DNA of 49,992 nt from Candidatus Omnitrophota bacterium (GTDB taxonomy: Bacteria > Omnitrophota > Gorgyraeia > JABMRN01 > RBG-13-46-9). This document shows positions 1 to 31,169 of this stretch, piece by piece. Within the stretch, counting starts at the first letter, position 1, and each line of letters opens with the position of its first letter. The stretch is from NCBI GenBank assembly GCA_049642705.1, contig JBARPB010000068.1:1-49992 (forward strand), given 5' to 3'. A program made the position numbers and the translations under genes. The notes under the pieces are model-generated. The model ran no database searches, had not been told where the DNA came from, and saw only the letters and a list, made by a program, of their open reading frames with translations.

Positions 1-1330
1 TACCAGGCGTTGAACTGGGATATTCTTTCTTCACTGATTAATTCCCCTCTAACTTTCATGCCTTTTCTCGGCCTTAATATGAATTGCTCGATAACGCCGA
101 AGAAATATCCGAGGGTGCCGAGCAAAACAGCGCCGCCTATGATGGCATTGAAGAACATGGCAAAATACCACGGCAGGCGCAGGAGCTTTCCAAAAACAGG
201 CAAAAAGACTCCCGTCGCCCCGTCTCCACCCGGCATTATGCTGGACATAATCGGAGTCAGGGACGATATGCCGGCAAGCGTGAGATAGACACCTACGATC
301 ATAAAGGCCGCTCCCCCGGCAATCGCATACCACTTTGTCCTCCCTGCCTTTAGAAATTCCGGAGGATTTAATTTGGTTTTATCTTTTTCTCCTTTAGGCG
401 CACCCATGAGCCAGGCAGCACCCGGGCCGAATATGAACGCGGCAACCAGAATTGTGGCTGCTCTAAGTACAAGGTCAACCGGTACAAAATTCGTTAATTG
501 TGAGGCCAATAATGGAGGCATAATCAGAACGGCTGCAATAATGACAGATTCTATTATCGGCCAGAGATAAACTGAACGCCATAGTTTTCTTTTTGCTTTA
601 TAATCCTTTGTTTCTCTGCGTTCTTTTATTGTATCCCGGAATTTACGATATGCGGGTAATATGCCTAATACCGCTGCCGCAATAATGCTTGTCACCATTA
701 CAGCTTTGGGCGTAAGGAAAAGCATTCCAGCTATGGGAGCTCCTGATATCGCCATAAAAACAGTGGAAAGGCCTATCGCGAGGGACCACCTGAACTTAAC
801 AATATAGTCAAACAAAGGCGGATTCGCGCTTGTTTCGAGAAATGACGGCCACGTGCCGGCCGATTTCTGCCCCTTGGCGTGAGATTTTACTTCTTCTTTT
901 GTCCCTTTGAAACCGTGCCACAATTGTACAGGTTTTAAAACGAGCTTCATCAAATAAACTGTCGTAGAGGAAACAAGTTCAAAAACGCCTATTGGTATAT
1001 CGTGTATTATGAACGATGCGAGTACGTTGAACGGCTTGGCAGTCCTACCAGTACCAAACGGTGTAAGGGGTGGTTCGACAATTCCGAATATGTAATTAGT
1101 AAGAGGGCCTGTAAACTTGGGGTGAATCAGGAGAATCATTATAACTAAAAATATGATTTCTCCGACAAATGGAAACGCAATTTCGAAAACGCCGGGTCTT
1201 AGCATCGCGTAGAAAGTAAATATAAGCTGTATTGCCCATATTGGCTCGGAGAACATGCCCCGCGTAACGAGGCTTTCCGAATATTCCCCTCTTAAAGGAA
1301 GCTTGGGCTTGACCGATTGGTCAATAAGTG
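1..1330 (-). other. Polytopic membrane region following the GT2 domain (continues beyond the window)
   Basis: Translation gives successive hydrophobic stretches, for example IWAIQLIFTFYAML, FVGEIIFLVIMILLI, LAIGLSTVFMAISGAPIAGMLFL, IIESVIIAAVLIMPPLL, YAIAGGAAFMIVGVYLTLAGI and FNAIIGGAVLLGTLGYFFGVI (the last verified at 3-182). Confidence 0.5.
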
Positions 1331-4300
1331 TAATGGTTGTCTCTAAGATTTCTTTTTGTGGCCTTAAGCGGAATTCGAGTTCCTCGGCGAATGACGCAAA
1401 TTCCTTTCTTCTCCGGCGGCTTAGGGTTCTTAATTTCTTGCCGCGGACTTCGTCGCGGAGGAACGTATAAACATTTACGTATGGACCCCTCATCTTTTCA
1501 GCACACTCACCTCTTATACTTTCAGAAGCATCGTCTTCAGAATATTCTCTGTAGATACGGATGGAATCATTGCATGCCTTTAATGCTTTATTGTAATCGG
1601 TTTCCGCTACGCCCAGGCTAAGTATAGCACTCTTATTATTAACTAGAAAATCCTGCAGGCCTTGCAGCGTATTTCCCTCTTCTTCCGCTGTTTTTATTAG
1701 CTGTTCTGCGTATTTTTTCTGCCACTTGAGGAACTTATTGCGTTTTCCGTGCAGGTAAATGAAATTGCGTATGTCAAACGTGGGCAGCCACTTCGTTTCC
1801 TCTCTTTCCAGCTCTGACATATAGCTGGTAGGCGTTGCTTCATATATTATTGCTTTCGGAACATATCCGACCCTTCCGAAAATCCCATGGTAGGCGTCCT
1901 CGCTCTGGAGGTATTTCCTGTCGAGCTTGTACATGCTCTGGAATTGATTACCCGCAACTTCCACATGATAATATGGTTTTACCCTGAAGAAATATTTACC
2001 GAAGGACCTAACGCCTCCTTCCGCCAAAGTAGCGGCTGTCTGCGAGAAATTACCCAGAGCATTATTTGGGGTATGTTTCATTACGTAAGCGTATAAACTC
2101 TGCGGCGCATTATAAAATTGTATCCGCGGCTGCCAGACCATATAGTCGTCGTTCATGGTATTAATCATTCTGAGAACTGTATCGGATGTTGCGAAGTTAT
2201 CGCTGTCTAGAATTGAGCCGTTGGCAAGCAACGGTTTTCCGTCATCGGAAGTTTCGCCTCTTAATCTGCGGAGGTTTTTGAGCCCTTCGGCTGTCGCTAT
2301 TATACCGTATTTGCCATCCCCTTCCCCTACGTGAGGAATGCCGTCATTTCCGGTAGTTACATTACCGGGAACCAGATCTTGCGTTTTGACGCCGAATATA
2401 AAGTCTTTTGTTACGGGGTCGTTTTCTTCATTCTCCCGATTTAACCATCTGAATACCTTGTAGAAGTTATGCGGTTTGGCAACTCCTTTCATGCAGAATA
2501 CATAGAACCGGTCCTTCACGTCGGGCCTGTTTGCAAGGTCCGGATTTTCGTAAACCAGTTCTTTTAAAATATCGTAGTACTGTTTGTAGAGCGCCTCTGA
2601 ATTGCCCACCGCCTGCAGAATAAGTACGCTGACTACATTTTCGGAATTTATGTCTTTTAATACCTGGACATTTTTATTAATAACTCCTCTTAATTGGTCG
2701 TTGTTTATCGGCCGGAGCGGATTTATCATCACGAAACTTTTATCATCGCTTATTTTCGAAATTTCTATCGGGGATTTAAGGTCGGGTACCATGTTGAGTA
2801 TATTACCCACAATCCATACGATAAACTTAAGAAGGTAGATATCGATGATTATTGTGACGAGGTATATAAACGTAGCTGACCAGATAGGCAGCACAAAGTA
2901 GCTAGCGGCGGTGATTGCGTTGAAGTTCACGATGCTTATTGCAAGGGTCGTAAGAAGCGAGGTGCAGAAAATAAGAACTAATTTAAAGGGCAGGTGCTGC
3001 CTTAGAATTATATCCTTCTCTTTTTCGTCCCTGAATTCCTTCAAATCGGCCCCTTTGGGCTTTGTAAGGCCCCTCCAGGGCGGGGATTTGTTCCACTTGT
3101 ATAGCTTGTGAACTGCGATTGCAAACGTGACCACGGCGGAAATTACTATCGATATAAGCAATGTCGGGTTAGAGAGTATGTATAGAATAGCCGGATAAAA
3201 TAGATAACCTGCCCCTGCCACGCTAAGGCCTGCAATTATAGCTGTAATCATTTTCCGCTTTGTTGTTACTTCTGCTTGTTTATCACTAACAGTATCGCGC
3301 ATTTTTAATAAAGATTCCGTTGTGGGCTTGCCTGTTCCTGCTTTATCGCTGCTTTTGGGTTCATGTTTTGTGGTCAATTTTTTTCTGGAAAGCACTCCAT
3401 AAATAATTCCATATATGAATATCAATGATAAAATTGCTCCGGCTAATAATAAGGTAGAGAGCTTAGGGTTATTCCTTAAGTATTCATAAGCCCATGTTCT
3501 TTTTTTCTCAAGCCATGACCACGATTCCTGCCAGACTTCTTTATCCACCGCTTCGGTAAGCAACTCTTCTTGTGCTATCTTGTGCATAACGTTTATAGGT
3601 CTTGATAGATTCTCTTCCAGGAATTTTTTGTCATAATTAAAAATATCTTCGTCCGCAAGCCCTATATTCTCATCGGCAAAAGTATTTTGCGAATCTAAAT
3701 AGACCATTATATCCCTGAGGTTCATATGGGTAAGTAAATCAAAGGTGAGCCGCGGCGCCGCGGTTCTGTCGGAGAATTTGTCTTTCTTTTCATTGTCGCT
3801 TATTGCTTTTTGGCGCAGCGCGTCCATTTCCAGCGTCCTATCGACCAGCATCTTTATAACAACGGGGTTAATCTTCCTTTTGACCATTTGTTTTTTTATC
3901 TCTTCTTTTTTCAAAAGGATAGATGGGTCCTTCAATCTCGGAAGTTCTCTAGTCAAAACTTCTCCTATTGCGGCTTCATCCGGTTTTTCCTCTTTCGGAA
4001 GTTTTGCGACGCCCAATGAAAACCAGTTGTCGGTTGTATAAGCGATTTTAGCAAGCATCTTCTGGTCTACGGGGATTCCAAGGCGCTCCATTTCTTCTTT
4101 GACTTTCTTAATAGCGGCTATCCAGTTTTCCAGGTCTTTCTGCTCTAAGCCGTTGGCGAAAGCGTTGTTTGCCATAAGCTGCTTTTGGTCTTCGGTGATT
4201 TCCAGGCCGATTCCCTCTTCCTTGCCGAGCGCCCTGTTTAAATATTCCTTTAGTTTAAATATACTTCCCAAGTTTCGCATTTCCTGCTCAAGAATAGCTT

Positions 4301-7300
4301 TGAGGCTCAAATCATCTATTTTTTCCATCTTTGCTTCCAGATTTTTCTTTCTTCCCGGCGGTAAGTTTTCTTCGTTTACCGCTATTATCAATTCCATCTT
4401 AAGCCGGGTTTTTATCTCATCTAAAATCTGCTTTTCGTATCGTGAGCCAATAAAATCTACCTTATCGGAAACTAGTCTCGCTAAGCCGGACGCAAATAAG
4501 CGCTGCTGTTTGGAAAGCTCTCTTCCGTTGTTATAAACTTCGGCGTAAAGCCTGATGACCATTTCGGGAATCGTAACAAATTTATAGATTACTTCGTCTT
4601 CGCTATACCCTACGGTGAGCATTTTATCGTCTATATAGAAGCTTATTTCACCGTCCGTCAATTCTACCCCTGCGTTTTCTTCCGCTTTTCTCCTCAAAGA
4701 TTCTATAAGGCGCATTCGCTCTTCTTTACCGGTCACCGCGTCCTGCAGCATCATGCGAAGCTTCCTTGCTCTTCTTGCTCTTTCCGTGGCTATTTTTTCT
4801 TTATATTTTTCTAAAACCTCATTATATATAATTCCTTCCGACATGCGGTCTTCACATTCCCACTTTCTCTGTTGTACGCCTGCGATTTTTTCAACAAGCA
4901 AAGGCCACATAAAGCCCTCCAAGGTTTTTAGCTGCGGCCTTATAAGGGCGATAATATCGCCTTCTCTTCTCTTGCCCTCCTTATAAATAAGGGGTGCCGC
5001 TAAGTCCGTAAAACCCTTGGATACGTTCCTTACGCTCTCTACAAGCTCACCCTTAGCTCTTGTTATCTTGCCTTCGGTCATGCCCTGGTTTTTACCGCGC
5101 TCTCCGGAGAGTATTTGTTCCAACTTCTCGAAATGCTTTACCCTATTTTCGAGTTCATCTTTTGTCATGGTCTCTCCGAACACTACTATCCATTTCTGCA
5201 GGAGATAACGGTAATCCTCGAATCTTCCTAAAGGCATAAAGGCCCATTCCGAATGGTATGTAGTTTCGAATCTTCTTATCTCTCTTCTCAGTTCATGAAT
5301 ATCAAGTTTTTTCTCATCGCCTCCCCTTACCTGGTATAATATACTGTAGATATTGCACCAGTTGAAAAATCTGCCTTGCGTCCTGTACTCCTGCTCTTGA
5401 ACAACTTCTATATCATCAAAGGTATTGTCCATATAATCTTTTGGGAGGCCCCGGCTATGCATGCGAACTACAAAACCCCAGACCTCCGCTTCGGTAGCTT
5501 CTGGAATAAGGTCAGCTACATCTTTATTATATTTTCCCCTTATTTTATCGCGCAACTTGCGTTCCCGTTCCCTGAAGTAAGCCGCACAGTCTATAAATTT
5601 GCCGATTGTTTCTTTTGTATAACCACGTGTTCTCTCAAGGAGCGTCATTAAATTACCTACTTTGCCGGCTTCAAGCCTTTGCGGTATTGTTATGATTCCT
5701 GTCTCCAATATCTCTTTAATCTTTTTTTCTGCGTCTTTTAATTTAAGATCCTGTATGCAACGAATGAGTACGGACTTAACTTCGGGAGTTACAATAATCG
5801 TCCGTTTATTGTAAGCCATGTACACTGCCTGGATGTAAATACGTTTTTCTATATCCTGAACCAGCTCTTCACGGGTTTCAATTCCCTTGCTAACTATGTA
5901 ATCTGTACCGAAATATACGGCTTCCTGGTCATTTACAGCTTCCAGGCCGAGTTCTTCTATGTAATCTCTTATTTCTTCTTTCTTTTCTTTACTAACATCC
6001 CATTTCCAGTCTTTTTTGTCTTTCAGTTCTTCAAGCAATCTTATGGACGCATCTTCTTTTGCTTTTTGCGCGGCATCTATATTCTTAAACACTTCCTCAA
6101 CAGCCAAATCCGGCTTATCGTATTCCTTCCTTAGCCTGTCGACAAGCCTTGCGTAATAGGGTAGCGCCTCCATTTCCAGCTGTTTCCAGTTTGTTTCGGC
6201 TGCCTTATATATATCGGCCATCGTGATAAAGAATTTTTCCATTTCCTCCGGCGAAAACTTGCCATCGACCATAAACTGCGGCTCGTTATCGATGGTGAAC
6301 TCTATGGTGAACTCTGCCCATGCCTTTAAGGTTCCGAGGTACCTACCCTGATTCATTCCGTAGTAATCAAACTCTAAGGGTTCGGCGCCTTCTTCAATTG
6401 CCCTGGCAAGCGCTTCGTCCTGCATGGCAAGTATGTCTTTAAGATTCTCGCCTATATCAGATTCGTAAAGATATCTTGCCAAACCAAGGCCTTTGGGATC
6501 TAACATCCTATATATTGACCCTATAGTCATGCCTTCGTTGAGAGATAACCTGGCGGGTATTACTGCGCGGTTCTTTATATTAACGGCATCGGCAAGTCCT
6601 GTGTCTTCGCTATAAACCTCCGGTACTGCCTGCCTTAATTTTACGAGATTATCCAACACAAAGTCCCTGTCGCAGGTAAGGAATAATGCGTGCGGCGAGA
6701 GGTGCGCCTGCCATTGGGTGTACTGTGGGCCAAACATTAATGCGGCCCTGTTCTGTGCTAAAAGAGATGTGCCTTTTTCTCCGCTGTATTTTCTCTTCGT
6801 CTCGCATGCGGAGTGGAAAGCCGCTATACTCAAGCCGAGTATATTACGCCTCTTGCCCTGGTCTTCTATAACGCGCCTGTAGTTATTAATCAGCATTTTC
6901 ATTACAGGGTTAGTATCTTCTGCTACAAGCATATTAGGCAAGCACAACTGGAATGCGCCTCCGTCCCATGTTGCGAGCACCGGTATTTCTTCGCCTGTTA
7001 ACAATTTGTAATTCCTTATCTCGATATCAGAGCTTAAGATGGAGTCCCTATCTATTTTGCCCATAGCCGCAAGGATTTGGCTATTTAGCCTTGATTCGCT
7101 TCCCAGTGTGCCGGCCGGATGCCATGTTTCTTTTGAATCTCCGAGCATACCCCCTACGAGAAGCTTTCTATCTCTATCGTAAAGTATGGTATAGTCTTGT
7201 GATTTTATTATCGAATCAGCCACTCTTTTTATTTCTTTCCCTTCTTCTGTGGCATCGTTTTTGTAGGCTTCTGATACTATTTTGAGGCAGGCTGTCAAGT

Positions 7301-10300
7301 TTGCGTTATCAATAGAAGGCAGGTAGTAATCTTCTATGGTGGGTATGCCAAGGCCTTTGGTTTCGTACCATGCATAAAAAAGACCGGATTTATGTCTTTC
7401 CATTTTTTCCATTGTTTTTAACATCTTTAGAATCGCGCTTCTTGCCTCGTCTTCGGTGGCTATCTTCAAGTCTCTTGCGGCGACAAATGAAATAAGCCCC
7501 ATACCTATATTGGTAGGCGAAGTAGTTGTCTGTAAGGGTACTATTTTCCCCCGGGCAACTTTATATTTATCTATGGGAATGCCGCTTTTGGATATCATGC
7601 GCTTCATTGCATTAAATGCATCTTTAAAATAGCTCTTCAAAGCTTCTGTTTTTTCGGCTTCTGACATGGCCTCGGCCGGGGCGGTAGGCGTAGCGGGGAG
7701 AGGCGCTGCTTCTTCCATTATCCTGCGTATATACTCGTTAAATCCGTCTTGTATTGCTATCGTTCTGTCAATTTGCTCAATGCCTTTTTTCATTTTTTCG
7801 GCAAGGGGTAATTTACTTAAATCCCTGTCGTCAGGCCTTACAATATTTTCCGCTATGCTAAGGATAGTTCCCATTACCTCGCCCATGAGCTCGTTATCTT
7901 CTTCTGCCTCGGCTTTCTTTATAAGATTACACAATTCTCCTTCCGACAGAGCATGGCCCTTAATGGCGAATCTGCCGTTTATCAGGATTTTCTCGATTTT
8001 TTCTATTGTCTGGGCCGCGCAACGCAGCATGGCATTCATCTCTTCTTCGGTAATAGGCTCTTTCCGTTCCTCGATTACGCCGGCCTGGTTCTCCCGGGTG
8101 CGCATTGACCTCTCAAGCGCCATGAGTTTACCTGCGTCTTTTGGGCTGTCGAGATTGAGCAGCCTTTCAAGGGGCTTACGATAAAATTCCTGCGCCCCCG
8201 GCATTATACCCTTCATCCTTGTAAGCCTTTGGTCAAGGTCCGGGATTGATATTCCTTCTTTTACTACGACTTCAATCGCATAGAAATAGAGAAGGCCGAA
8301 GTCATCGGGATTTGCGGCATCCATCTTGCGCTCAAGGAATTTTTCAACCGGTCTTTTCACAAGCGCGATATTTTTATATATGGTTTTGAGCTCTTTTGAT
8401 AAGGCATTAATGGTAGCTTCCTCAGAAATATCCGGACTAATTGTAAGGCGTTCCGCGCTATCTTTTTCTACGATATGGGTAACGCCGTTTCTTTCAAATA
8501 TCCTATCGGTCGGTTTGATAACAACACTTTCCCCTTCCCTCGGAATAAGAATAACGCTCCCGTTATCTCCTGCCTTAACCTTGAAGGTCTCGAGTCCGAG
8601 TTTTATCCAGCCCATATTATCATCTTCTTTTTCAAGGTCTCTTGCTGATGGCAGTGTTTTGGTATGCAGTTCTATAAGGAAATCTGCGGTGGAAAGAACC
8701 TTTCCGATTTCCAACTGGTCCATGATTTCCTGTATTTTCATTACAATGGCTTTCTTGTCTTCTTCGTGCACAGGTTTCCCTTCCCGTTCCAGCCTTTTGT
8801 ATCTTCCCACGAGCCTGCCGATTTCGACGAAGTCCGATTTTCTCATATTTTCATATTCGCCATTTATACCGCGCTCTATGTGGTCTAGTAATTGATTAAG
8901 GGCGCGTTCATTTATTTTGGCTTTACCGTCCTTGCCTATCAACCGCCCAAGAAGATGATTGATTTTGCCCACATAACGGATATAATTAAATTTCTCGACA
9001 TCCGTTTGGATTTCGACACAAAGATCCGTAAAGAGGTCCAGTCTTTTATAATCGCTGATCGTAGCCCCCGAGGGATTCTTCATATATCGGTTTGACAAGA
9101 ACATGACCGCAAAACTGTATTCTGCTCCCGCTGCTTTCAGGTCGCCGTAAAGATGATATGTCCTACCGGGCCTTAGCCTCTCGAGTGCCTTCTTGGCAAC
9201 CATCCTGAGGTATTTCCAGTATCTTTCGTCATCCATCCTCTGGAACCTGTATTTTCTGGTGTCATTACGCATAATCCTTAGCGTCTTTATGAAATCGCCG
9301 GGGTCCTCCCCTTTGTATCCTTTGCCTTCATACCAGGTTTCAGGATTCCTGAACCAGTCTACGAGTTTTTCCTGTATTACCTGCCAGTCGCGGTCTATAG
9401 CGTCTAAAATATTTACCGGAATACCCTCCTGCAGTGAATCCATGGCCTGGCCCGAATAATGGTCTATGAGGCCCAGGAGCCTTACGGTGTTAACACCCAT
9501 GTAACCCTTGGCCTCGTGAGTAAGCAGGCCTTCGTATCCGCTTAAAAACGGAAACATGGTGCAGTCACTCTTGATAGACATGAATATGCCCCTTATATCG
9601 GATGGTTTCACAAGATTGGAATATTTAATTTCCCCTGCGACTTCTCTTTCTATTCCGGATACGTCTACCATGTAAACCGTTCCGATTTCGCCGAGAATAA
9701 AGCCGGTAAGGTCCTTTCTTTCACTTTCCGATAAGCTTAATTTATGTTTTTCGGCTATGCCATCTATGAAGTCCCCTATTTTTTCTCTTGCGACCCTTTT
9801 AAAGAAGTTGTTCCAGTTTTCGACTATTTTTTTAGTGACCATCTCTTTATATCTTATCTCTTCTGCGTAATCGCCCTTTGATTGGCCGATAAGCGTCGTG
9901 CTGTCTTCGTTTTCTATTATCAATCTTGCAAAATCTTCGAAACTTATAAATCTTTCCTTACCGGGGACTTCATGCTGCCTTGTCCAATCCAGTGTTTCGT
10001 TTATCAATATATCATACAACACTCTTATATTTTCTTCTGCTCCGGCGTAGGCGCTAAGATCAGGTGCCGGTTGTCTTATTCGGGTTTCAGTCTGTGGAAT
10101 ATCCCAGTTCCGCGCCTCGTAAGGTTCTTCCGCCTCCGGCATGAACGCTGGAATGAAGGGTGTAATTATTCCGCGATTATTTTCCAGAAATCTGAGCATG
10201 CCGATCCGTAGTTTCTTTCCTGCAATCTCCCGTTTTTTCTCTTCGATTTCTTTCCTCACTTCTGTTGCCCGGGCCGGCTTTACTTCCTCTTTTACAAATT

Positions 10301-22300: not shown

Positions 22301-24068
22301 TGGGCTTTAAAGGTATGCCTTCGTCATAGGACCTTCCAAGGGAGTAAACTATGGCTTCACGAAGCTGGCGATCATCGCCTGTATAGAAATACGCTCGCAC
22401 AGCCAATATATACTCCCCGGTCTCGAGAAGTTCTTCATACGGCTGTTTTTTATTCGTAAGAACCGCTATGTAAGGACGCTGCTCCCCGTCTTTGAATTTT
22501 GGCATTATAACAAGATACGAAAGGCCCTTTTCCTTCATGAGCGCGGAAAGCCCTTTCGAGTGGAAACCACCCGTTATTAGAGCCGCGACCTGCTCGTCGT
22601 TTTCCCTCATAGCGCGGATGGTGTTCGCAATCATGGCGTTATTTCGGCGCTGGGCGATATTGTAGAACTTTACCGCCTCGTCCATGTTGCCGAATATCAC
22701 ATCGAGGTCGTAAGTATGCTCGATGGGCAGTTTGTGCTTCAGGTAAGTTTTCTTGATAAATTCCGAAAGAAGCGTTCTGTCGAAATAGCGCTTTTTGCTT
22801 GTAACAAAGTCGTAATCGGCGTTGCTTAAAGAGATCTCGAAAAGCTTCTTTATCGTCCTTACCGCTCTTGTGAGGTTGTAAAGTTCGCGCTCTTCGTCAT
22901 TTCGGTAGATTTTCTCGCGGATATAATCCTCGAATTCCTCCACCTCCTGGAAAAGTGCCAGGAGGTCTATATCTTCGTAAATCGTTATATAGCGTGTAAA
23001 ATTAATCAGGTTAGAATATGGCTTGGGTGAAAGCTCGATGTCTTCGGCCAACCTTACGAGGTACCGGTGGAACTCGGCCTGGGAGATCTTCCCCATTTTG
23101 AAAGAGAGCGATTCAAGGACAAGTTTCTCTATTTCCCTTTTGGGGAGGACCCTCGAGAGTTCGTCTATGAGGAGTTTCCTCTCTTCGTTCGCTTTGTCAA
23201 AATCTATGCCTTTTTCGAGCTCTATGGATTTGAGCAGTTTGGAGAGGTTTTCAAATATGACGATTTCGATATTATTCCTTTTAGCCAGTTTCGCTATGAA
23301 GTCCCAGTGAGAGGTAAACGCGAGTTTGCCGTCATGGTGAAGAACGGAGTTTTTATTAAGCTGCCTTAAATCCTTGGAATAGACCTTGGGCGCGAACGCT
23401 TTCAGCGTGCTTAAAACTGCCTCAATATTGCGTAGGCTCTCTATCTTCCCCTCCATCACCGTATTAAGGGCTTCGATGTTGGCTTTGTATAAGGCGTTAT
23501 CCTCGATACCGTAAAGCCGGATGGGTTTTTCGGAAACAACGGAGAAGAATTCGCCGGCTGACATCTTGCCCTTTCGCATGAGGTATTCGGCGGTTTCTTT
23601 GCGGATTTCGGCATCCGGGAAGGTCCGAAGAAGCGATATATCTATCGGGCCTTCGGCGCCTTCAAGGGCTATTAGGTCAAGGTCGTAATTTGCGGCAAGC
23701 GTCTGGAGTATTTTTACAATCGACTGCTGGGCTGATAGAGAGGCGTGGGCGTCCTGTATGTTGATGACGACTTCGTCCCCGCCGTTGGAAAAGGCGTCCT
23801 GGGCGATGCCGGCGTCGTAAGGTATCTTTATTCCGTTAAGCCGGGCTCTTCCATTCAGCGTGATCTTCGGCTTGGCCTGGTGCCATATCGGCGTTCCGCC
23901 CTGTGCCCGTGTTATGTCAGACAATAGAAATGTAAAGATTAATATATATGCTAAGGTTTTAAATAAAAAGGCATGGCGCTTTCTCCAATCCGCCATGCCT
24001 TCATTCTTTGTCTGTGCTAATCTGCGTTCCTCATCTGTGCTAATCTGTGTTTTCTGCCAAGCTTTCAT
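1..24068 (-). CDS. Giant multidomain envelope protein, 3'-partial (>=8,022 codons in window; frame runs off the left edge)
   Basis: Not on the supplied ORF track because it has no in-window stop. The ATG at 24068-24066 has AAGGTG 7 nt upstream and an in-frame upstream TAA at 24140-24138. I hand-translated the minus strand in the frame whose codons begin at + coordinates divisible by 3, at 3-182, 2091-2762, 4980-5039, 7500-7559, 12000-12059, 14523-14642, 16500-16559, 18870-19127, 20343-20462, 21420-21479 and 23900-24068. Every stretch was protein-like, in the same frame, with no stops. No minus-strand ORF is listed between 334 and 24228, which fits one unbroken frame. An alternative start is M25 (ATG at 23996), which aligns with the start of the paralogue. 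Confidence 0.85.
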   Translation of the reverse strand, partial: MKAWQKTQISTDEERRLAQTKNEGMADWRKRHAFLFKTLAYILIFTFLLSDITRAQGGTPIWHQAKPKITLNGRARLNGIKIPYDAGIAQDAFSNGGDEVVINIQDAHASLSAQQSIVKILQTLAANYDLDLIALEGAEGPIDISLLRTFPDAEIRKETAEYLMRKGKMSAGEFFSVVSEKPIRLYGIEDNALYKANIEALNTVMEGKIESLRNIEAVLSTLKAFAPKVYSKDLRQLNKNSVLHHDGKLAFTSHWDFIAKLAKRNNIEIVIFENLSKLLKSIELEKGIDFDKANEERKLLIDELSRVLPKREIEKLVLESLSFKMGKISQAEFHRYLVRLAEDIELSPKPYSNLINFTRYITIYEDIDLLALFQEVEEFEDYIREKIYRNDEERELYNLTRAVRTIKKLFEISLSNADYDFVTSKKRYFDRTLLSEFIKKTYLKHKLPIEHTYDLDVIFGNMDEAVKFYNIAQRRNNAMIANTIRAMRENDEQVAALITGGFHSKGLSALMKEKGLSYLVIMPKFKDGEQRPYIAVLTNKKQPYEELLETGEYILAVRAYFYTGDDRQLREAIVYSLGRSYDEGIPLKPTMKRWLRLFTYDYYAFSEVVRKWIGEGKRPITPKQLAKMFGFELRVKFKEEGKIESGIESVEITEKPGEKSGFSVESVRVGGEKVIVVRCTNEKGETEIEIALTKNEKGEYNIDLVSPQAKRILERREVKPEIEKLISREKETRKSTLDLLNCKNSETKEKRDKIIRSIRSKIIDNNGALREGVDIENVIVRVLRAKRYGIPNNWRDDPELVKGIRDITVIVRQAINFKDKENWALQRNPENDWEDLYVFNAGAIEIDGKIYLVYRALGTRDNKSRFGLAIIDIENGTTERFSDPIYEGKKAWEINGVEDARITEENGEIIIYFTALSGELGYRDDHKDVPKYPIFRPAIASISIEDFKNRNWEAWKRGGIIKFTDGTNPDWFKNFVPLADGYAYVRPTNTLKDKKTWLILKSKKGPLGPWEVLKGENGEPVKITPECWWEGKDSEGWFGPGTPPIRVKDPDGKEVEVIFTHGTTVKEDIPIYRIGAKVFDPENPTELRTTTEPLIDIPLEEIIKDEQEIRELKEKGEINVPNIRFTTGAVWLGDGKFALFYAKNDMDTRVAIITLKDIYDKLTPAPAPEAPALEFAPPVEGGYLYIDRLREIYREAIRQLGRDDIKDALVIGSALYLADKDGKVPVAAVSDIDIAVVVSSDAKLDEVTKAINDELGHILAGLAEQIKVPERSILYTHYGSYVTILTEDGRSVNLDIMLAFGENVKEAVHFIAKEFYEDILRPEEEPGVVSFVKAYLRMEYLIGDTERFNRIRERFLEDPSGSAAGIIQEIKESGRQAELAKIIEGNREEIIATIEAGLRRKTGLVTEAPRRAPPAKGGKFMTWLIVGGTLLLSVSPALAGEAAKQGELFLSLHTVLSFIAFVLAGIAIRYLSITPLKKYFLKQYKKLSLTAGVVSFVLLLSLFNISETRFARSVKDFARTPVANVKLFINSVLREIPWRKVASGIEYARVNVANTGIPGEAIILGKSARLEIVRYSDLKNFTPADGYTVYGVFNTAPQVNDKHTTLVGAKGKVLRKRNPVSTRAGGAFYIKYPSGSVRIIKNTDAEFNAFVNGRNFGIAVQAGPLVKENGNIIGNLPKESTSRIYVGVNSQGDTTKIIKVGEGITGYGNVKYVLDAYFRDCPNVMLFDAGQSDITKINREGLPVSNIDLRDKNLCKNLYCLVVTGKPVALPMRSVVPSILFSAGIAQAIYGLATDGTVPAQGVTQASFGGNFVVLTAAALVIGTVFYIFERLMTIWIERKFREIRSEIKKAIEIAGRDVDGKTHTKLVLIKDNLVRRIQTVTKIIKLLTPYRSKRIRDAIDGVTADYNRLRKELEKKIPQKKPPEGTGRNALLWFITIGAGLAAFFGGEVALQAAQSATEGLKVAGGNLSTLLLAATVALAINISILAFRDRAKIRTYFSQRKLRKAGKKLAHLKAELERAFAKDMKEKNLNFEEMTAEMLRPKYRMLLNHPDYLIDKPELEEELCNYIARVLTLKKAGMDISFLKRMKDPSYYRDRLIRMNAGLLERKIALLKALNLSVKPDILLYSIDKIQKRAGALHRYGLPVTDTTIRYSEKKIIPAAIESHIATITAKWIAPKERRQLAVLLGRILTATPYALSGEDAMAEMAAGKLQWVGQESQEKFLRQFEPLVGLVRDGTLTDERRTKLFELFARIQDGDLKPYLKTNLTPEETKAFTQLSRKFISGPEEKEAAASVLYRAIRLPGGGEAFKEAIKSERLTPQRRIHILRLLKEEKNLYLRSRVAVQKAVIAGLRYAKSKNSAFLKEIQVIADAMEAKDNHFFANEARIFAARHDEYVLGVMGIREFKEEHIEIFRAVSISLRRLFPGTTPYSKILAKYGRRDIWAGIKESLSRFDMIRNLNVFEGRFAFVKTAIVILAVIMLIPAILLAPTTATSAISPHAGDTGLDIGEAHPALDVTPDISAPLSELLPAIEPTVEEKSGEAIDLERKIDEISAFMARQEEIIANMDKKASELSSEKMRVNRLRNVLDTLCGRLDQREAEKEELEKERESLAAREEKRPAEAAILHAPQEINIVGIEDFGLSNALRTALSGVLTNLAEKGHVFTDSARGGTPRVYVYRDGFGNKTSPGEKAYEIWNRGENPTIFVCTGASSDDIVSSYRRFAELGGDRKDAILVFIDGNKGFLAAKGGLPPGIKVLNFHTADSGTYGPMEGAENVRLRGVSHWGVLKDKAVQAMIADELAKALTAAAPPTAVSEEKPAEEAFRSMQLAALEGKMRALEFETGLLRKTILSLADTEDTEGKLASLREDSKKLGEELLRTQEELEKAQAELQILRIIQEAPKAEEKISASPLTAAEKFFDRITARRQALEREVERIQPEESEEKLLTDAESAARAELISILRAKNIEPWDISDNDLAQILGRTVEILLRKSGNDKLATAEKIETRSRQFKDTVKSVMNEIQKESKGRDAAQQFISMLNTALIEAGWFTAYEKIIVPVEREVTPAVMTIPKPKETLQPTEPLGRKELITLALYYRFTTEKEREKWGTAENWMQYAAERDEGDFRKFVEENTDVKIRDLESEISDKERGITLDLKLGASLLRGAFGGLELRIPIFDTSRVPRENLQVLKGHEIRLVTMKEYVDVLFEVESAIARYKLTQRNLEKAERDLAGAKNTHELAMKRQKDGIEESVDEARLLLKKAEAALEGAKKEKDDALKNITSLLGLRIRKDRVILSKKLIDEDMLSASSRKETAEILGEMGLAYTEKAEDTLLVQMARTEKLISETSMKLAQTAGDIKATLILRPEASNVLGWMGSGIFAEFSKEDRENPYRLLLLYLSEVSDYWNELSSIQRQLDTAGAELAYARSEFERFDEMAKGALGKYNAILQSDYRTNLAGYGEVEMAKNDLMQALNRREAALASYKASHDKICMLTVGIEKEIRDRLEEYEQKTRDGEKLYRRHGREAKKVLGPIMSIVEASEAFPIEPGFAYQEALKFERDIEDKYSEARRNARVGTRFLIFPRTKFYHVFEEEDGTISKVECNRDWKKTLDLLGAQLLYARRARKMLEPVDEAKLENMNLKSLIVMARDRRHDRMQAEISSEAAEIRYEDKFKEARLPGSNVKLRKVQAGWPFLGTEFEVKRGEKEKLELYGLDWELRQQAIRSIDNDIAQSIASAYSDLCKAYALHFNWEQSVLESQPLWMVKAKRVLTEFDRNNIDTKGLREGLEKMEGIAEKIRITEDKEFADLLNEWGEEAEKILEGVLSLSGQMRFKGVLDAVKELYRAQIEYEFAIAQRYENLEIIRREESNLKEIVGLDEHAELGIAFADSLRGKRPDAIARELSDRLEAFIKNNYDYEIYFDGADLNILIAEKCLEIANKNPNFRFMFSLDFTAKAGGTGVDLWQGVIRKDRRIDIESAKKWLEKAKRDRRDLLITTLNKRNMNRWHLENTERILAIYMGRLSRAEDTLSDLKKKYGNDVERIYLDEILKASIAVRSQVGLALAGAIDRAIAEIYRSEYETLGKELDEEDLRKKAITTIDEDARDRAELAREESKIEKLFVFAKGIDASFQLSVTQPETGPLEYNMSLGAAYRIDFLDEDIPIARKHLEVREYELSQRNFELRQALITKVNEMLAAAQAIKIAEIRIERTEKFLDTIAARARNLTLYFKGDEKGIRGAEDAVAMAERDLAIARERFESAKSDLLDLLKTVDATGIRIPIFGGRIMSEFEKEKVDTKEREAYEAYANELERVNKAKKGIFYWFGHWHRHKHDVKDYSGRTITTIDVHSKDEPKLNQLQETWLEARWNSFSGEVRLPDMDKFVVMALKEDPTLNSINAERAVLLMEKAALGGEGILGRIIPKGPEGSSRLSILGSAVAGSGGASLTWDMGMEWSIRLIGNTEKEKVRIKELMQHELERLEEQKRLEVENRIDAMVDSINYTARRCVLAAERAGLAMELLSEKWDEFENIPDKTLWSGIHKVAEELSSAEIEYTESVDALNNARFAHKNAVDNLVEYARLLGIDEGKIFRSPTTFETPAVQFVKEEVKPARATEVRKEIEEKKREIAGKKLRIGMLRFLENNRGIITPFIPAFMPEAEEPYEARNWDIPQTETRIRQPAPDLSAYAGAEENIRVLYDILINETLDWTRQHEVPGKERFISFEDFARLIIENEDSTTLIGQSKGDYAEEIRYKEMVTKKIVENWNNFFKRVAREKIGDFIDGIAEKHKLSLSESERKDLTGFILGEIGTVYMVDVSGIEREVAGEIKYSNLVKPSDIRGIFMSIKSDCTMFPFLSGYEGLLTHEAKGYMGVNTVRLLGLIDHYSGQAMDSLQEGIPVNILDAIDRDWQVIQEKLVDWFRNPETWYEGKGYKGEDPGDFIKTLRIMRNDTRKYRFQRMDDERYWKYLRMVAKKALERLRPGRTYHLYGDLKAAGAEYSFAVMFLSNRYMKNPSGATISDYKRLDLFTDLCVEIQTDVEKFNYIRYVGKINHLLGRLIGKDGKAKINERALNQLLDHIERGINGEYENMRKSDFVEIGRLVGRYKRLEREGKPVHEEDKKAIVMKIQEIMDQLEIGKVLSTADFLIELHTKTLPSARDLEKEDDNMGWIKLGLETFKVKAGDNGSVILIPREGESVVIKPTDRIFERNGVTHIVEKDSAERLTISPDISEEATINALSKELKTIYKNIALVKRPVEKFLERKMDAANPDDFGLLYFYAIEVVVKEGISIPDLDQRLTRMKGIMPGAQEFYRKPLERLLNLDSPKDAGKLMALERSMRTRENQAGVIEERKEPITEEEMNAMLRCAAQTIEKIEKILINGRFAIKGHALSEGELCNLIKKAEAEEDNELMGEVMGTILSIAENIVRPDDRDLSKLPLAEKMKKGIEQIDRTIAIQDGFNEYIRRIMEEAAPLPATPTAPAEAMSEAEKTEALKSYFKDAFNAMKRMISKSGIPIDKYKVARGKIVPLQTTTSPTNIGMGLISFVAARDLKIATEDEARSAILKMLKTMEKMERHKSGLFYAWYETKGLGIPTIEDYYLPSIDNANLTACLKIVSEAYKNDATEEGKEIKRVADSIIKSQDYTILYDRDRKLLVGGMLGDSKETWHPAGTLGSESRLNSQILAAMGKIDRDSILSSDIEIRNYKLLTGEEIPVLATWDGGAFQLCLPNMLVAEDTNPVMKMLINNYRRVIEDQGKRRNILGLSIAAFHSACETKRKYSGEKGTSLLAQNRAALMFGPQYTQWQAHLSPHALFLTCDRDFVLDNLVKLRQAVPEVYSEDTGLADAVNIKNRAVIPARLSLNEGMTIGSIYRMLDPKGLGLARYLYESDIGENLKDILAMQDEALARAIEEGAEPLEFDYYGMNQGRYLGTLKAWAEFTIEFTIDNEPQFMVDGKFSPEEMEKFFITMADIYKAAETNWKQLEMEALPYYARLVDRLRKEYDKPDLAVEEVFKNIDAAQKAKEDASIRLLEELKDKKDWKWDVSKEKKEEIRDYIEELGLEAVNDQEAVYFGTDYIVSKGIETREELVQDIEKRIYIQAVYMAYNKRTIIVTPEVKSVLIRCIQDLKLKDAEKKIKEILETGIITIPQRLEAGKVGNLMTLLERTRGYTKETIGKFIDCAAYFRERERKLRDKIRGKYNKDVADLIPEATEAEVWGFVVRMHSRGLPKDYMDNTFDDIEVVQEQEYRTQGRFFNWCNIYSILYQVRGGDEKKLDIHELRREIRRFETTYHSEWAFMPLGRFEDYRYLLQKWIVVFGETMTKDELENRVKHFEKLEQILSGERGKNQGMTEGKITRAKGELVESVRNVSKGFTDLAAPLIYKEGKRREGDIIALIRPQLKTLEGFMWPLLVEKIAGVQQRKWECEDRMSEGIIYNEVLEKYKEKIATERARRARKLRMMLQDAVTGKEERMRLIESLRRKAEENAGVELTDGEISFYIDDKMLTVGYSEDEVIYKFVTIPEMVIRLYAEVYNNGRELSKQQRLFASGLARLVSDKVDFIGSRYEKQILDEIKTRLKMELIIAVNEENLPPGRKKNLEAKMEKIDDLSLKAILEQEMRNLGSIFKLKEYLNRALGKEEGIGLEITEDQKQLMANNAFANGLEQKDLENWIAAIKKVKEEMERLGIPVDQKMLAKIAYTTDNWFSLGVAKLPKEEKPDEAAIGEVLTRELPRLKDPSILLKKEEIKKQMVKRKINPVVIKMLVDRTLEMDALRQKAISDNEKKDKFSDRTAAPRLTFDLLTHMNLRDIMVYLDSQNTFADENIGLADEDIFNYDKKFLEENLSRPINVMHKIAQEELLTEAVDKEVWQESWSWLEKKRTWAYEYLRNNPKLSTLLLAGAILSLIFIYGIIYGVLSRKKLTTKHEPKSSDKAGTGKPTTESLLKMRDTVSDKQAEVTTKRKMITAIIAGLSVAGAGYLFYPAILYILSNPTLLISIVISAVVTFAIAVHKLYKWNKSPPWRGLTKPKGADLKEFRDEKEKDIILRQHLPFKLVLIFCTSLLTTLAISIVNFNAITAASYFVLPIWSATFIYLVTIIIDIYLLKFIVWIVGNILNMVPDLKSPIEISKISDDKSFVMINPLRPINNDQLRGVINKNVQVLKDINSENVVSVLILQAVGNSEALYKQYYDILKELVYENPDLANRPDVKDRFYVFCMKGVAKPHNFYKVFRWLNRENEENDPVTKDFIFGVKTQDLVPGNVTTGNDGIPHVGEGDGKYGIIATAEGLKNLRRLRGETSDDGKPLLANGSILDSDNFATSDTVLRMINTMNDDYMVWQPRIQFYNAPQSLYAYVMKHTPNNALGNFSQTAATLAEGGVRSFGKYFFRVKPYYHVEVAGNQFQSMYKLDRKYLQSEDAYHGIFGRVGYVPKAIIYEATPTSYMSELEREETKWLPTFDIRNFIYLHGKRNKFLKWQKKYAEQLIKTAEEEGNTLQGLQDFLVNNKSAILSLGVAETDYNKALKACNDSIRIYREYSEDDASESIRGECAEKMRGPYVNVYTFLRDEVRGKKLRTLSRRRRKEFASFAEELEFRLRPQKEILETTITLIDQSVKPKLPLRGEYSESLVTRGMFSEPIWAIQLIFTFYAMLRPGVFEIAFPFVGEIIFLVIMILLIHPKFTGPLTNYIFGIVEPPLTPFGTGRTAKPFNVLASFIIHDIPIGVFELVSSTTVYLMKLVLKPVQLWHGFKGTKEEVKSHAKGQKSAGTWPSFLETSANPPLFDYIVKFRWSLAIGLSTVFMAISGAPIAGMLFLTPKAVMVTSIIAAAVLGILPAYRKFRDTIKERRETKDYKAKRKLWRSVYLWPIIESVIIAAVLIMPPLLASQLTNFVPVDLVLRAATILVAAFIFGPGAAWLMGAPKGEKDKTKLNPPEFLKAGRTKWYAIAGGAAFMIVGVYLTLAGISSLTPIMSSIMPGGDGATGVFLPVFGKLLRLPWYFAMFFNAIIGGAVLLGTLGYFFGVIEQFILRPRKGMKVRGELISEERISQFNAW
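1700..2760 (-). other. Processive GT2 glycosyltransferase domain, OpgH/MdoH-like
   Basis: Codon-by-codon translation of 2091-2762 gives FVMINPLRPINNDQL..VVSVLILQAVGNSEA..DRFYVFCMKGVAKPHNFYKVFRWL..NGSILDSDNFATSDTVLRMINTMNDDYMVWQPRIQFYNAPQSLY. Downstream is SEDAYHGIFGRVGYVPKAIIYEATPTSYMSELEREETKWLP. This matches the OpgH-type order: rifYRrR..n.K.GN, the LDaDs (DxD) motif, iiQt.P, then an E..P.....RW-like motif. Multi-TM regions lie on both sides. Confidence 0.55.
6500..7620 (-). other. (alpha/alpha)6-barrel glycoside hydrolase-like domain related to the central domain of cyclic beta-1,2-glucan synthase (NdvB/Cgs) and GH144-type beta-1,2-glucanases
   Basis: Translation of 7500-7559 gives VARGKIVPLQTTTSPTNIGM. 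Downstream comes HKSGLFYAWYETKGLGIPTIEDYYLPSIDNANLTACL, which I compare with the sPTNiGl and G.l.NWYDT.t..pl.p.YVStVDsGNLa..L motifs I recall from NdvB/Cgs-type proteins. Further on are LATWDGGAFQLCLPNMLV and LSLNEGMTIGSIYRML. Confidence 0.5.
10400..14650 (-). other. Array of TolC / outer-membrane efflux protein (OEP)-like repeats (at least four)
   Basis: Hand translation at 14523-14642 gives ERGITLDLKLGASLLRGAFGGLELRIPIFDTSRVPRENLQ, followed by long helices ending ...ALKNITSLLGL. Further units include MSLGAAYRIDFLDEDIPIARKHLEVREYELSQRNFELRQALITKVNEMLAAAQA...AIARERFESAKSDLLDLLKTV (about 11290-11700) and GGASLTWDMGMEWSIRLIGNTEKEKVRIKELMQHELERLE...NNARFAHKNAVDNLVEYARLLGI (about 10380-10830). 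Each unit has a beta-strand pair with a PlFDgg-like turn followed by Ala/Leu-rich coiled helices, which is the TolC family repeat pattern. Confidence 0.5.
18860..19540 (-). other. Phosphodiester glycosidase (NAGPA/DUF2233)-like domain
   Basis: Codon-by-codon translation of 18870-19127 gives NAFVNGRNFGIAVQAGPLVKENGNIIGNLPKESTSRIYVGVNSQGDTTKIIKVGEGITGYGNVKYVLDAYFRDCPNVMLFDAGQSD. This resembles the aGPlLv.nG ... R...G ... LDGGGS pattern of NAGPA domains. Hydrophobic segments flank it at about 19560-19830 and 18600-18720. Confidence 0.4.
20100..20520 (-). other. Pol-beta-fold minimal nucleotidyltransferase domain
   Basis: Codon-by-codon translation of 20343-20462 gives DDIKDALVIGSALYLADKDGKVPVAAVSDIDIAVVVSSDA. 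This is the hG[GS]-x(n)-D-h-D-h NTase signature. Confidence 0.55.
20590..21610 (-). other. GH130/DUF377-like five-bladed beta-propeller domain (glycoside phosphorylase/hydrolase-like)
   Basis: Hand translation gives ENWALQRNPENDWEDLYVFNAGAIEIDGKIYLVYRALG..SRFGLAIIDIENGTTERFSDPIY..GVEDARIT..IYFTA..GPGTPPIRV..IYRIGAKVFDPENP..NIRFTTGAVWLGDGKFALFYAKNDMDTRVAIITL. This follows the FNpGa..dG...l.YRa / S.iGlA / EDpRi / YTa / pP / Y..G..l.D..nP / v.f..G.....l.iYYG.aD blade pattern of GH130. Confidence 0.55.
22000..23915 (-). other. Conserved ~640-aa N-terminal module shared with the 1,021-aa ORF; possibly a Tiki/TraB/ChaN-like fold
   Basis: Alignable with aa ~20-660 of ORF 24487-27552. Shared strings include GGTPIWHQAKP, VVINIQDAHASL, LIALEGAEGP, KMSAGEFF, RNNIEIVIFENLSKLLKSIELEK, ITGGFHSKGL and MPKFK[DE]GEQRPY. 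The paralogy is seen directly. The fold assignment (QDAH...EGAEG plus a C-terminal TGGFH, like the GxxH motifs of ChaN/TraB/Tiki) is weak and by eye. Confidence 0.6.
23916..23972 (-). other. N-terminal signal-anchor / transmembrane helix of giant protein 1
   Basis: Hand translation gives ...DWRKRHAFLFKTLAYILIFTFLLSDITRAQGGTPIW: a basic stretch followed by about 19 hydrophobic residues. The paralogue at 24487-27552 has the same layout (MKTWYKAIAFILLFAFLFYDISWTQGGTPIW). Confidence 0.6.
24011..24047 (-). repeat. Perfect 14-bp direct repeat TCTGTGCTAATCTG x2 (+ strand reading), period 23 nt, at the extreme 5' end of giant gene 1
   Basis: Copies lie at 24011-24024 and 24034-24047, separated by cgttcctca. 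The period is not a multiple of 3, so the two copies are read in different frames (QIST versus RLAQ). This points to a nucleic-acid-level site rather than a coding repeat. Confidence 0.6.
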
Positions 24069-24140
24069 TTTAAACACCTTTTTAAATTTTCTAAGAAAGT
24101 AGTGAAAAAAAATATTCTCATTTTCACCATCAACGCTTTA

Positions 24141-27825: not shown

Positions 27826-28443
27826 CTAAAGGCTATTTTGGGGGTGTTTTTTGACGATACGTCTGATAAGAAAGAAGGTAAGTATAATGAGAAATGCTGT
27901 TACTATGTTTTTTGGTGTCAGAAATAGAGGGCCCTGCGGAATTTCTGCGGCATTCAATATTTCGACAATAGCTTCTGTGCCTTTTTTTATGCCCTCGGCG
28001 TAATTTCCCATGTTGAATTCAGGCGCAATTTTGTTTTGTATAATATCCTTGATTATAGGGTCTGTTAATATGCCCTTAAGATTCTGGCCTACGCCTATGG
28101 TCATTCGTCCTTCCTGTAAGGCAATGAGCAATATTACGCCGTTATCTCTCCTTCCCTTTTTAATCTCCCGCCATTTTTCGCCGTACGCCAGCACAAAATT
28201 CTCGAATTGCCAGCCATCCAGGGAACGAAAAGTGGCTACAATCATCTCTGCCCTGTCCGGTGTTTCCTGCTTCACCGAGGATATAAGTTTTTTGAGATAA
28301 TTTTCGGCATTCTGGTCGAGAATGCCGGCGTAATCGTTTATGGGCGTCTCTGTCCTGCCGGGAACCGGGATCCTGGCAAATCCTGTTTCCGCATAAAAAA
28401 TAGTGAGAACTGATACTGCAAAAATGACAAATACCCTTTTCAT
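27826..28443 (-). CDS. TPM-domain (TLP18.3/Psb32/MOLO-1 family) protein with signal peptide and C-terminal TM helix
   Basis: N-terminal hydrophobic leader. INDYAGILDQNAENYLKKL...EMIVATFRSLDG...NGVILLIALQEGRMTIGVGQNLKGILTD...GNYAEGI matches the TPM pattern (v.D.agiL...ei.vvtv.sl.g...nGvlll.a...r..rI.vG.gle). The C-terminal helix is IVTAFLIILTFFLI. The start overlaps the upstream stop (ATGA). Confidence 0.8.
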   Translation of the reverse strand: MKRVFVIFAVSVLTIFYAETGFARIPVPGRTETPINDYAGILDQNAENYLKKLISSVKQETPDRAEMIVATFRSLDGWQFENFVLAYGEKWREIKKGRRDNGVILLIALQEGRMTIGVGQNLKGILTDPIIKDIIQNKIAPEFNMGNYAEGIKKGTEAIVEILNAAEIPQGPLFLTPKNIVTAFLIILTFFLIRRIVKKHPQNSL

Positions 28444-29921: not shown

Positions 29922-29922
29922 A

Positions 29923-31154: not shown

Positions 31155-31169
31155 GCGATATCTCCTGTT

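Follow-up and report, generated by a model that had tools for sequence, protein, structure and literature searches.

The DNA analysed here, referred to as the window, is the entire 49,992-bp contig JBARPB010000068.1 (assembly GCA_049642705.1) of a Candidatus Omnitrophota bacterium, in which all genes lie on the minus strand. Its first 24 kb are taken up by one open reading frame (ORF), G1, the front 8,022 codons of a giant gene whose 3' end is lost at the contig edge. The predicted product combines a signal anchor, several enzyme-like domains and three clusters of transmembrane (TM) segments, with a candidate glycosyltransferase (GT) domain between the last two clusters. The features of G1 and of the paralogous gene next to it are listed here in the direction of translation, with residue numbers (aa) referring to the G1 protein.

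24487..27552, minus strand: P1021 (also P0001), a 1,021-aa paralog of the G1 N-module; 100% identical to NCBI WBC74_04020, Candidatus Omnitrophota
24075..24080, minus strand: Shine-Dalgarno-like AAGGTG; 6 nt separate the end of the motif from the ATG of G1
3..24068, minus strand: G1, front 8,022 codons of a giant gene; no stops, uniform frame-0 codon signal, 3' end lost at the contig edge
23913..23969, minus strand: N-terminal signal anchor or signal peptide, aa 34-52 (hydrophobicity; matched in P1021 by a classical signal peptide)
22485..23855, minus strand: Omnitrophota-specific N-module, aa 72-528 (57 homologs; QDAH, EG, R and GGFH motifs)
20589..21596, minus strand: GH130 domain, aa 825-1160 (Pfam PF04041, PDB 9fj8 and 7fip, NCBIfam NF052550)
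16608..19811, minus strand: first TM-like cluster, about 9 hydrophobic segments, aa 1420-2487 (hydrophobicity)
3447..16607, minus strand: E/L/A/K/R-rich region of 4,387 aa free of TM segments, aa 2488-6874, predicted to be extracytoplasmic (crude parity, positive-inside rule)
6441..7580, minus strand: SGL-clan (beta-1,2-glucanase-clan) domain within that region (PDB 8xuj, 8wy1 and 8rf9 residues 1000-1300; Pfam DUF3131)
3459..6221, minus strand: family-conserved helical region before the membrane core, aa ~5950-6870 (colinear in P0059, P0071, P0074, P0068, P0069, L004 and L005)
2805..3446, minus strand: second TM cluster, 5 segments, aa 6875-7088 (hydrophobicity)
1719..2771, minus strand: GT84-like glycosyltransferase domain, aa ~7100-7450 (profile against PDB Cgs 8rf9/8rf0, E 1.8e-8; Foldseek)
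90..1181, minus strand: third TM cluster, 8 segments, aa 7630-7993 (hydrophobicity; conserved in all family members)

An open reading frame of 8,022 codons

The original prediction held that a minus-strand frame of at least 8,022 codons runs uninterrupted from the ATG at 24068 to position 3, and translation bears this out: the reverse complement of 3-24068 yields 8,022 residues and no stop, starting with the ATG at 24068-24066. The two upstream features it described, AAGGTG just 5' of the ATG and an in-frame TAA some 70 nt upstream, were both located, the TAA at 24140-24138 (72-70 nt 5' of the ATG). Met25 is an alternative start from which a classical signal peptide would result, yet its ribosome-binding site is poorer. 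Given the stop frequency expected from base composition (0.059 per codon, or about one in 17 codons), 8,022 codons would stay open by chance with a probability of about 1e-212; the remaining five frames across G1 contain between 170 and 587 stops each, and the plus-strand ORFs over G1 are antisense shadows. That the frame looks protein-like also holds up. Codon-usage log-odds, trained on the genes of the window other than G1, stay positive along the whole of frame 0, between +0.34 and +0.39 per codon; in frames 1 and 2 they are about -0.5 to -0.65 per codon for each window of 1,000 codons. The amino-acid composition is ordinary and not of low complexity. G1 was indeed absent from the ORF list available for this DNA, as had been remarked, but merely because the listing program drops ORFs that run off the sequence.

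A repeat scan of the window found no tandem repeats within G1, and no internal repeats were found in its protein. Sizeable repeated DNA touches the gene at one place only, a 300-nt paralogy with the upstream P1021 gene; besides this there are two short two-copy matches, probably due to chance. No Rfam families or tRNAs were found in the window, and promoter and terminator scans of it stayed at background level.

As the window is the entire contig, G1 is truncated by the contig end. Exact 50-mer scans of genome and metagenome contigs found no contig overlapping that end, and a metagenome scan at the protein level, with the final 400 aa of G1 as query, found no relative. Three proteins of the window, looked up by exact match, gave no record. 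Relatives that possess a true stop were obtained by other means (see below) and run on past the point at which the window ends, in agreement with the earlier statement that the 3' end is missing. Colinear homologs on independent contigs back aa 72-528 and aa 4885-8022, while for the stretch between these two parts it is the coding statistics by themselves that carry the frame.

The membrane core and the domains attached to it

The GT84-like domain sits between the last two TM clusters in a TM-GT-TM arrangement. The family profile matches Cgs residues 568-761 (8rf9 numbering; E 1.8e-8), and G1 residues D7288, D7290 and D7391 (D198, D200 and D301 of the alignment) coincide with D624, D626 and D739 of Cgs, the residues that were mutated to inactivate the GT domain of that enzyme (PMC10901819). 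This Asp triad is invariant in 13 divergent members of the family. With an AlphaFold2 model of aa 6860-8022, which is of low confidence, Foldseek returns Cgs as its top match (E 7e-7), with hyaluronan, cellulose and chitin synthases next in rank.

Two further domains resemble enzymes acting on sugars. The SGL-clan domain shows homology to the (alpha/alpha)6 catalytic domain of a clan comprising GH144, GH162, GH189 and new beta-1,2-glucanase families: it matches residues 84-434 of EeSGL1 (8xuj, E 1.9e-13), the GH189 cyclization domain of TiCGS (8wy1, E 2e-13) and the cyclase region of Cgs. The clan is defined by a conserved general-acid Glu, a Tyr and a Phe, to which GH189 adds the nucleophile E1442. 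Of these, G1 appears to keep the acid in an SExR motif: 'GSESR' at aa 5657 stands opposite 'ASEAR' and 'ASECR' in TiCGS and Cgs, the equivalence to E1356 being putative. The GH130 domain near the N-terminus scores 34-39 bits against a gathering cut-off of 26 (PF04041, E 2e-8 to 6e-10), is nearest to beta-1,2-mannobiose and oligomannan phosphorylases, and retains the EDxR motif ('VEDARIT' in G1, aligned with G(L/V)EDPRI of GH130 enzymes). For the large central region, coiled-coil and OEP (TolC-like) assignments were marginal and were set aside (one Pfam match at 24.7 bits against a cut-off of 22, the others below).

The N-module has 57 homologs; the named ones come almost all from Omnitrophota or Omnitrophica, and many are N-terminal fragments on short contigs. 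Its QDAH, EG, R and GGFH motifs are built of invariant or nearly invariant residues. In several homologs different enzyme domains come after it (cellulase, PGK plus GAPDH, TGT, metallophosphatase). The best homolog, P0003, lies on a 1.43-Mb genome and has no G1-like gene adjacent. A confident AlphaFold2 model of the module (pLDDT 84.9) shows a beta-sandwich besides an alpha/beta core that bears a large helical insert; neither Foldseek nor profile comparison gave a significant match for the module in PDB. Weak leads are EreC, an erythromycin esterase (Foldseek, E 0.15), 3b55 (E 0.39), and matches to PF04187 (ChaN/Tiki) in 3 of 38 members (best E 0.068). The module is possibly a remote hydrolase fold of the Tiki/ChaN/erythromycin-esterase type, although a significant sequence or fold match to the Tiki, TraB, ChaN and erythromycin-esterase superfamily was not obtained; the resemblance of the QDAH, EG, R and GGFH motifs to that superfamily was judged by eye. 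The P1021 gene, directly upstream of G1, encodes a protein 59-65% identical to G1 aa 36-804.

About 22 hydrophobic TM-like segments are found in the visible part of G1. Topology was assigned by setting the first segment N-in/C-out and alternating from there, on the basis of a hydrophobicity window and not a trained predictor, with an uncertain number of TM segments in the first cluster. On this basis the GT domain and the C-terminal tail would be cytoplasmic, and the N-module, the GH130 domain and the central region of 4.4 kaa (thousand amino acids) with its SGL-clan domain would lie outside. A nucleotide-sugar transferase and domains using ATP or phosphoenolpyruvate (PEP) require the cytoplasm, with which the crude parity agrees. 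Most of the K/R-rich flanks of the segments are in line with the parity, that of TM2 is not.

Among characterized proteins, Cgs is one of the closest parallels in architecture. Like G1, it is a large polytopic membrane protein with a GT84-type transferase docked under TM helices, and it pairs an SGL-clan (alpha/alpha)6 domain and a phosphorylase-type domain with the transferase; its catalytic D624, D626 and D739 are kept in G1. By contrast, the order of domains is reversed in G1, where about 1,300 residues separate the SGL-clan domain from the GT domain that follows it; the phosphorylase-type domain is GH130 and not GH94, and is placed at the far N-terminus, probably on the opposite side of the membrane; TM-like segments number 22 instead of 6; and the SGL-clan domain is not conserved in the relatives of G1, identities to Cgs being only about 12-30%. 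BcsA, hyaluronan synthase and chitin synthase match the TM-GT-TM core (as given by the low-confidence model) at the level of fold. The parallel extends to PilZ proteins, which are encoded near G1, and the Foldseek matches include c-di-GMP-bound (cyclic di-GMP-bound) BcsA entries; G1 differs from the processive GT2 synthases in that PilZ is not fused to it and in an altered QxxRW motif.

Relatives, the missing end and the giant proteins of Omnitrophota

When the last 1,200 residues of G1 were searched exhaustively with HMMER, 47 relatives emerged; a word-seeded search with the same C-terminal 1,200 aa returned nothing, and a word-seeded profile search with the GT module gave two matches only. 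Three relatives are full length (P0074, 5,233 aa; P0080, 7,079 aa; P0077, 7,990 aa), and in all of them the N-module comes first, followed by the helical region (aa ~5950-6870 of G1) and then by the TM-GT-TM core near the end, which is the order seen in G1. The closest relatives are N-terminally truncated fragments, each of which reaches a true stop and a shared tail motif.

L003: 54% identity to G1 over 1,332 aligned positions; 1,092 residues beyond the window-end point
L004 (Omnitrophica RIFCSPHIGHO2_02_FULL_46_20): 43% identity over 2,102 aligned positions; 2,242 residues beyond the window-end point
P0058: 49% identity; 2,631 residues beyond the window-end point

Because these relatives extend 1,092-2,631 residues further, the full G1 protein is estimated at about 9,100-10,650 aa, of which the visible part would be roughly the N-terminal 80-88%; the true stop is thus expected some 3.3-8 kb past the contig end. 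The downstream parts of the relatives vary, with an HExxH motif, PPDK_N or PEP-utiliser domains and an HD-like motif (read by eye), and with an NAGPA match below threshold (23.6 bits against a cut-off of 25). They share a C-terminal tail, (I/Y)YLP..IDY..EI..Y..A...(S/T)AA, which over the wider set reads (I/Y)YLP..(I/V)DY..EI..Y..A...(S/T/M)A(A/V)-COOH; it is a tail which no Pfam model matches and which may be a sorting or recognition signal. The tail is found on P0001, P0002, P0041-P0043, P0058, P0089, L003 and L004, that is, on N-module proteins of 1 to more than 5 kaa, several of them of only 1.4-1.7 kaa; shorter endings in ...SA or ...AA occur in P0063, P0069, P0074, P0077 and P0080. P1021, which ends in the same motif, is thus a 'mini' member of the family.

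With the N-module in front and a common tail behind, the family is 'bookended' around an insert that ranges from 0.4 kaa to over 9 kaa. Judged from sequence comparison, G1 belongs to a previously unnamed family defined by a predicted signal peptide or anchor and the N-module at one end and a conserved tail ending in ...(S/T)AA at the other, to which the giant members add a membrane core with a putative Cgs-type (GT84, GT2-like) transferase between two TM bundles. The SGL-clan domain is absent at the homologous position of L004, and GH130 is unmatched in the three full-length relatives P0074, P0080 and P0077; these two domains are therefore lineage-specific cargo, and the GT core is the conserved element.

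Two observations concern the wider set of sequences. Homologs of the TM-GT-TM core with 34-42% identity (P0061, P0062, P0064, P0066, P0067 and P0079) contain long Ser/Arg/Pro/His low-complexity tracts and have a eukaryotic look. An Omnitrophota genome, CP070780.1 (1.43 Mb; L001 17529-22996, P0083), has further large genes, among them those for a 3,049-aa TPR/radical-SAM protein and a 4,150-aa protein, labelled 'partial (d)CMP kinase', in which the TM-GT-TM core recurs.

It is in this phylum that giant genes are concentrated, and two preprints describe them. One of them reports 46 Omnitrophota genes longer than 90 kb, encoding up to 85,804 aa with numerous TM regions and often divergent SecA domains (West-Roberts et al. 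2023, bioRxiv 10.1101/2023.11.21.568195). In the other, 94% of 176 complete Omnitrophota genomes encode at least one protein of at least 10 kaa, the longest having 147,155 aa; TM helices or a signal peptide occur in 94% of the long proteins, and giant ORFs are typically broken at contig boundaries in short-read metagenome-assembled genomes (MAGs) (Nielsen & Lui 2026, bioRxiv 10.64898/2026.06.07.730766). As giants are common in Omnitrophota and broken in MAGs, an open frame of at least 8,022 codons at a contig edge is the expected appearance. The original view that a bacterial gene of more than 24 kb is extremely rare thus stands for bacteria generally but not within Omnitrophota, where proteins of at least 10,000 aa occur in 94% of complete genomes; and G1 is not the largest unexplained object of the window that it was taken for, giant multi-pass membrane proteins being a published hallmark of the phylum. 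The giant ORF as such is an already known type of object in Omnitrophota.

G1 shares several traits of that class. Its host genome is of Omnitrophota, its named homologs are nearly all from Omnitrophota or Omnitrophica, and the relatives P0059, P0083 and L004 carry those labels. The hydrophobicity scan gives it 22 segments including the N-terminal anchor, in keeping with the many TM helices and signal peptides of the class. With 8,022 aa visible and about 9,100-10,650 aa estimated, it is near the 10,000-aa cut-off of Nielsen & Lui and well below the 30,000-aa cut-off of West-Roberts et al. The published giants ('Archaeovorin'-type and related giants with many enzyme domains and TM helices, and the V. 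archaeovorus giant protein) resemble G1 in phylum, many TM helices and N-terminal signal anchor, in sugar-active enzyme domains scattered through mostly unannotated sequence, and in a gene broken at the end of a MAG contig; the G1 locus also holds a giant gene with SecA domains, G2. G1 differs from the 2023 set in size (about 9-10.6 kaa, where those giants exceed 30 kaa) and, relative to the giants as described, in lacking SecA, C39/S8 peptidase, dockerin and TSP3 domains in its visible residues. Most members of the published class carry a divergent SecA DEAD domain within the giant itself. No Pfam match to SecA was found in the 8,022 residues of G1, that domain being present in the separate neighbour G2, nor was any Pfam match to SecA, C39/S8 peptidase, dockerin or TSP3 found in the downstream parts of four relatives.

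The portions of the two giant-protein papers that were read or searched do not describe the GT84-like core, the N-module or the C-terminal tail motif, and in the text searched GH130, DUF3131, PF04041, PF11329, GT84, NdvB and 'cyclic' go unmentioned; our literature search found no report joining Omnitrophota with a glucan synthase. The recognition of a Cgs-type GT84 core, an N-module and a C-terminal tail as constants of one giant family may be new.

Possible function and gene neighbourhood

The genes upstream of G1 and P1021 are as follows.

27826-33561, minus strand: dlt/alginate-acetylation-like set (TPM-domain protein, AMP-dependent ligase, carrier, PP-loop ATPase-like protein, DUF1574 protein, MBOAT)
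29923-30171, minus strand: 82-aa carrier protein (PF00550) of that set
33592-33960 and 34174-34476, minus strand: two paralogous PilZ proteins (~70% DNA identity over 148 nt)
34493-49828, minus strand: G2, a complete giant gene of 5,111 aa with SecA-like ATPase domains

It is the combination of an MBOAT acyltransferase, an AMP-dependent ligase and a carrier protein that gives the first set its dlt/alginate-acetylation-like character. The PilZ pair, placed between G2 and the MBOAT gene, possibly represents c-di-GMP receptors for a glycan synthase. Two of the full-length relatives lie in comparable surroundings. Downstream of P0074 comes a 2,202-aa protein that fuses UDP-glucose pyrophosphorylase with two UDP-glucose/GDP-mannose dehydrogenase units (L008/L009 25757-32365), and a DUF3131 plus Glycoamylase protein precedes P0074 by about 1.8 kb. 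Within about 5 kb downstream of P0080 there are a sugar-nucleotide epimerase and a Wza-like Poly_export protein (L010 35671-36564). Thus three independent loci point to polysaccharide synthesis, modification or export.

On account of these glycan-related neighbours of G1 and its two relatives, taken together with the core, we hypothesize that G1 is probably a giant inner-membrane protein of the Omnitrophota giant-protein class that both synthesizes and processes a glycan. The cytoplasmic GT domain would polymerize a glycan from a nucleotide sugar at the membrane, in the manner of Cgs, hyaluronan synthase and BcsA. Outside, the N-module and the GH130 domain, together with the central part and its SGL-clan domain, would bind, trim or transglycosylate the polymer in the envelope, while the adjacent dlt-like acylation genes might modify it and the PilZ proteins might regulate its production. 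The outer domains might equally act on related beta-1,2-linked glycans there. Beta-1,2-glucan made from UDP-glucose is a conceivable product, for which the UDPGP/UDPGDH fusion adjoining P0074 would be an indirect hint at most. Topology, substrate and the action of all domains on one common polymer are the presumptive elements of this scheme; the ORF, its taxonomy, the homologies, the conserved catalytic Asp residues, the colinearity and the gene neighbourhoods are observed.

Several points weigh against it. The homology of the GT domain is remote (~12% identity to Cgs), the model of the TM-GT-TM core is poor (pLDDT 53.8, TM-score ~0.2), and G1 has xxKW where QxxRW is expected. The flank of TM2 contradicts the positive-inside rule in a topology drawn from a hydrophobicity window, and about 3,700 residues (aa ~1,200-4,880) are without a detected homolog or domain. 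Furthermore, the GH130 and SGL-clan domains are not family-wide and so might serve another purpose, such as an attack on foreign glycans; published work favours prey adhesion and cell-wall degradation for Omnitrophota giants (bioRxiv 10.1101/2023.11.21.568195).

That last view leads to an alternative which we consider less likely, yet a serious rival: G1 would be a prey- or host-attack protein, a surface adhesin with an array of enzymes in which the GH130 and beta-1,2-glucanase-like domains degrade foreign envelope glycans and the membrane core is an anchor or export device. It draws on the adhesion and cell-wall digestion proposed for Omnitrophota giants (West-Roberts et al., bioRxiv 10.1101/2023.11.21.568195) and on the secretion genes and glycoside hydrolases that adjoin giants (Nielsen & Lui, bioRxiv 10.64898/2026.06.07.730766). 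In G1 itself the N-terminal signal anchor and two glycoside-hydrolase-type domains in predicted extracytoplasmic regions are in keeping with it, and so is the SecA-domain giant gene 10 kb upstream. However, the family-wide element is the GT core with its intact catalytic Asp residues, whereas the glycoside-hydrolase domains vary by member; type II/IV secretion, pilus and adhesin-repeat genes were not found in the window; and the genes around G1 and around two relatives have to do with making, modifying or exporting glycans. Prey attack is most plausible for the variable glycoside-hydrolase domains, and it is compatible with glycan synthesis.

A scaffold devoid of catalysis appears improbable; on this reading the enzyme-like domains would have degenerated, and the protein would play a structural part in the envelope or act like a cytoskeletal element. 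About 85% of the length has no recognizable domain and is rich in E, L, A, K and R in the way of long helical proteins, as such a role would have it, but the GT Asp triad is invariant in 13 divergent members and the GH130 'EDxR' motif and the putative SGL-clan 'SExR' acid motif are retained; a purely structural role is less likely because catalytic residues are conserved. Still harder to credit, and in our estimate very improbable, is that a short-read assembler fused unrelated fragments in frame into a chimera: the contig does come from a metagenome bin and aa ~1,200-4,880 have no independent homolog support, but the chance of an in-frame, stop-free join across 8,022 codons is negligible, codon usage is uniform along G1, internal repeats able to mislead an assembler were not found, aa 4885-8022 are colinear with L004, and the order of N-module, helical region and TM-GT-TM core recurs in full-length relatives whose contigs are independent and as long as 225 kb.

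Returning to glycan synthesis, a bolder proposal is put forward tentatively, as a possibility worth entertaining. The G1 family might constitute distinct modular mega-synthases with a processive core like that of Cgs and hyaluronan synthase (HAS), in which N-module and tail are fixed and enzyme cargo is inserted on a kilobase scale, such that a single polypeptide would make one envelope or host-contact glycan, process it in the periplasm and perhaps supply its precursors; part of the giant phenomenon would then be the building of glycans and not the degradation of prey walls. If G1 is indeed a synthase, part of the functional hypothesis for giants moves from prey digestion to envelope-glycan biosynthesis, and Omnitrophota giants become linked to the well-studied mechanisms of Cgs, HAS and BcsA. 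Giant genes are the signature oddity of Omnitrophota, and a catalytic core provides a testable handle on their function. To our knowledge, no Omnitrophota giant gene has a tested function. G1 is a comparatively small and tractable giant with a recognizable catalytic core and three conserved Asp residues, and its family offers a 'mini' paralog next door, P1021, as well as full-length members of 5-8 kaa; the TM-GT-TM core is also present in shorter relatives such as P0095 (932 aa).

The second giant gene of the window, G2, has no detectable similarity to G1. Residues ~2219-3080 of its product form a full SecA-like ATPase (DEAD, preprotein-binding, P-loop and scaffold/wing regions). The scaffold/wing is matched by PF07516 (E 2.5e-6), whereas it is lacking in the giant-borne SecA domains reported by West-Roberts et al. 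(bioRxiv 10.1101/2023.11.21.568195). There are three Gly-zipper_YMGG matches in G2, and its 5' part (48212-49070 and 47220-48200) carries 123-nt (41-aa) tandem repeats of 61-87% identity and runs of Gly/Ala-rich repeats of the 'GAAIGA' type. The C-terminus of G2, ...AIRQTITAV, resembles the tail of the G1 family.

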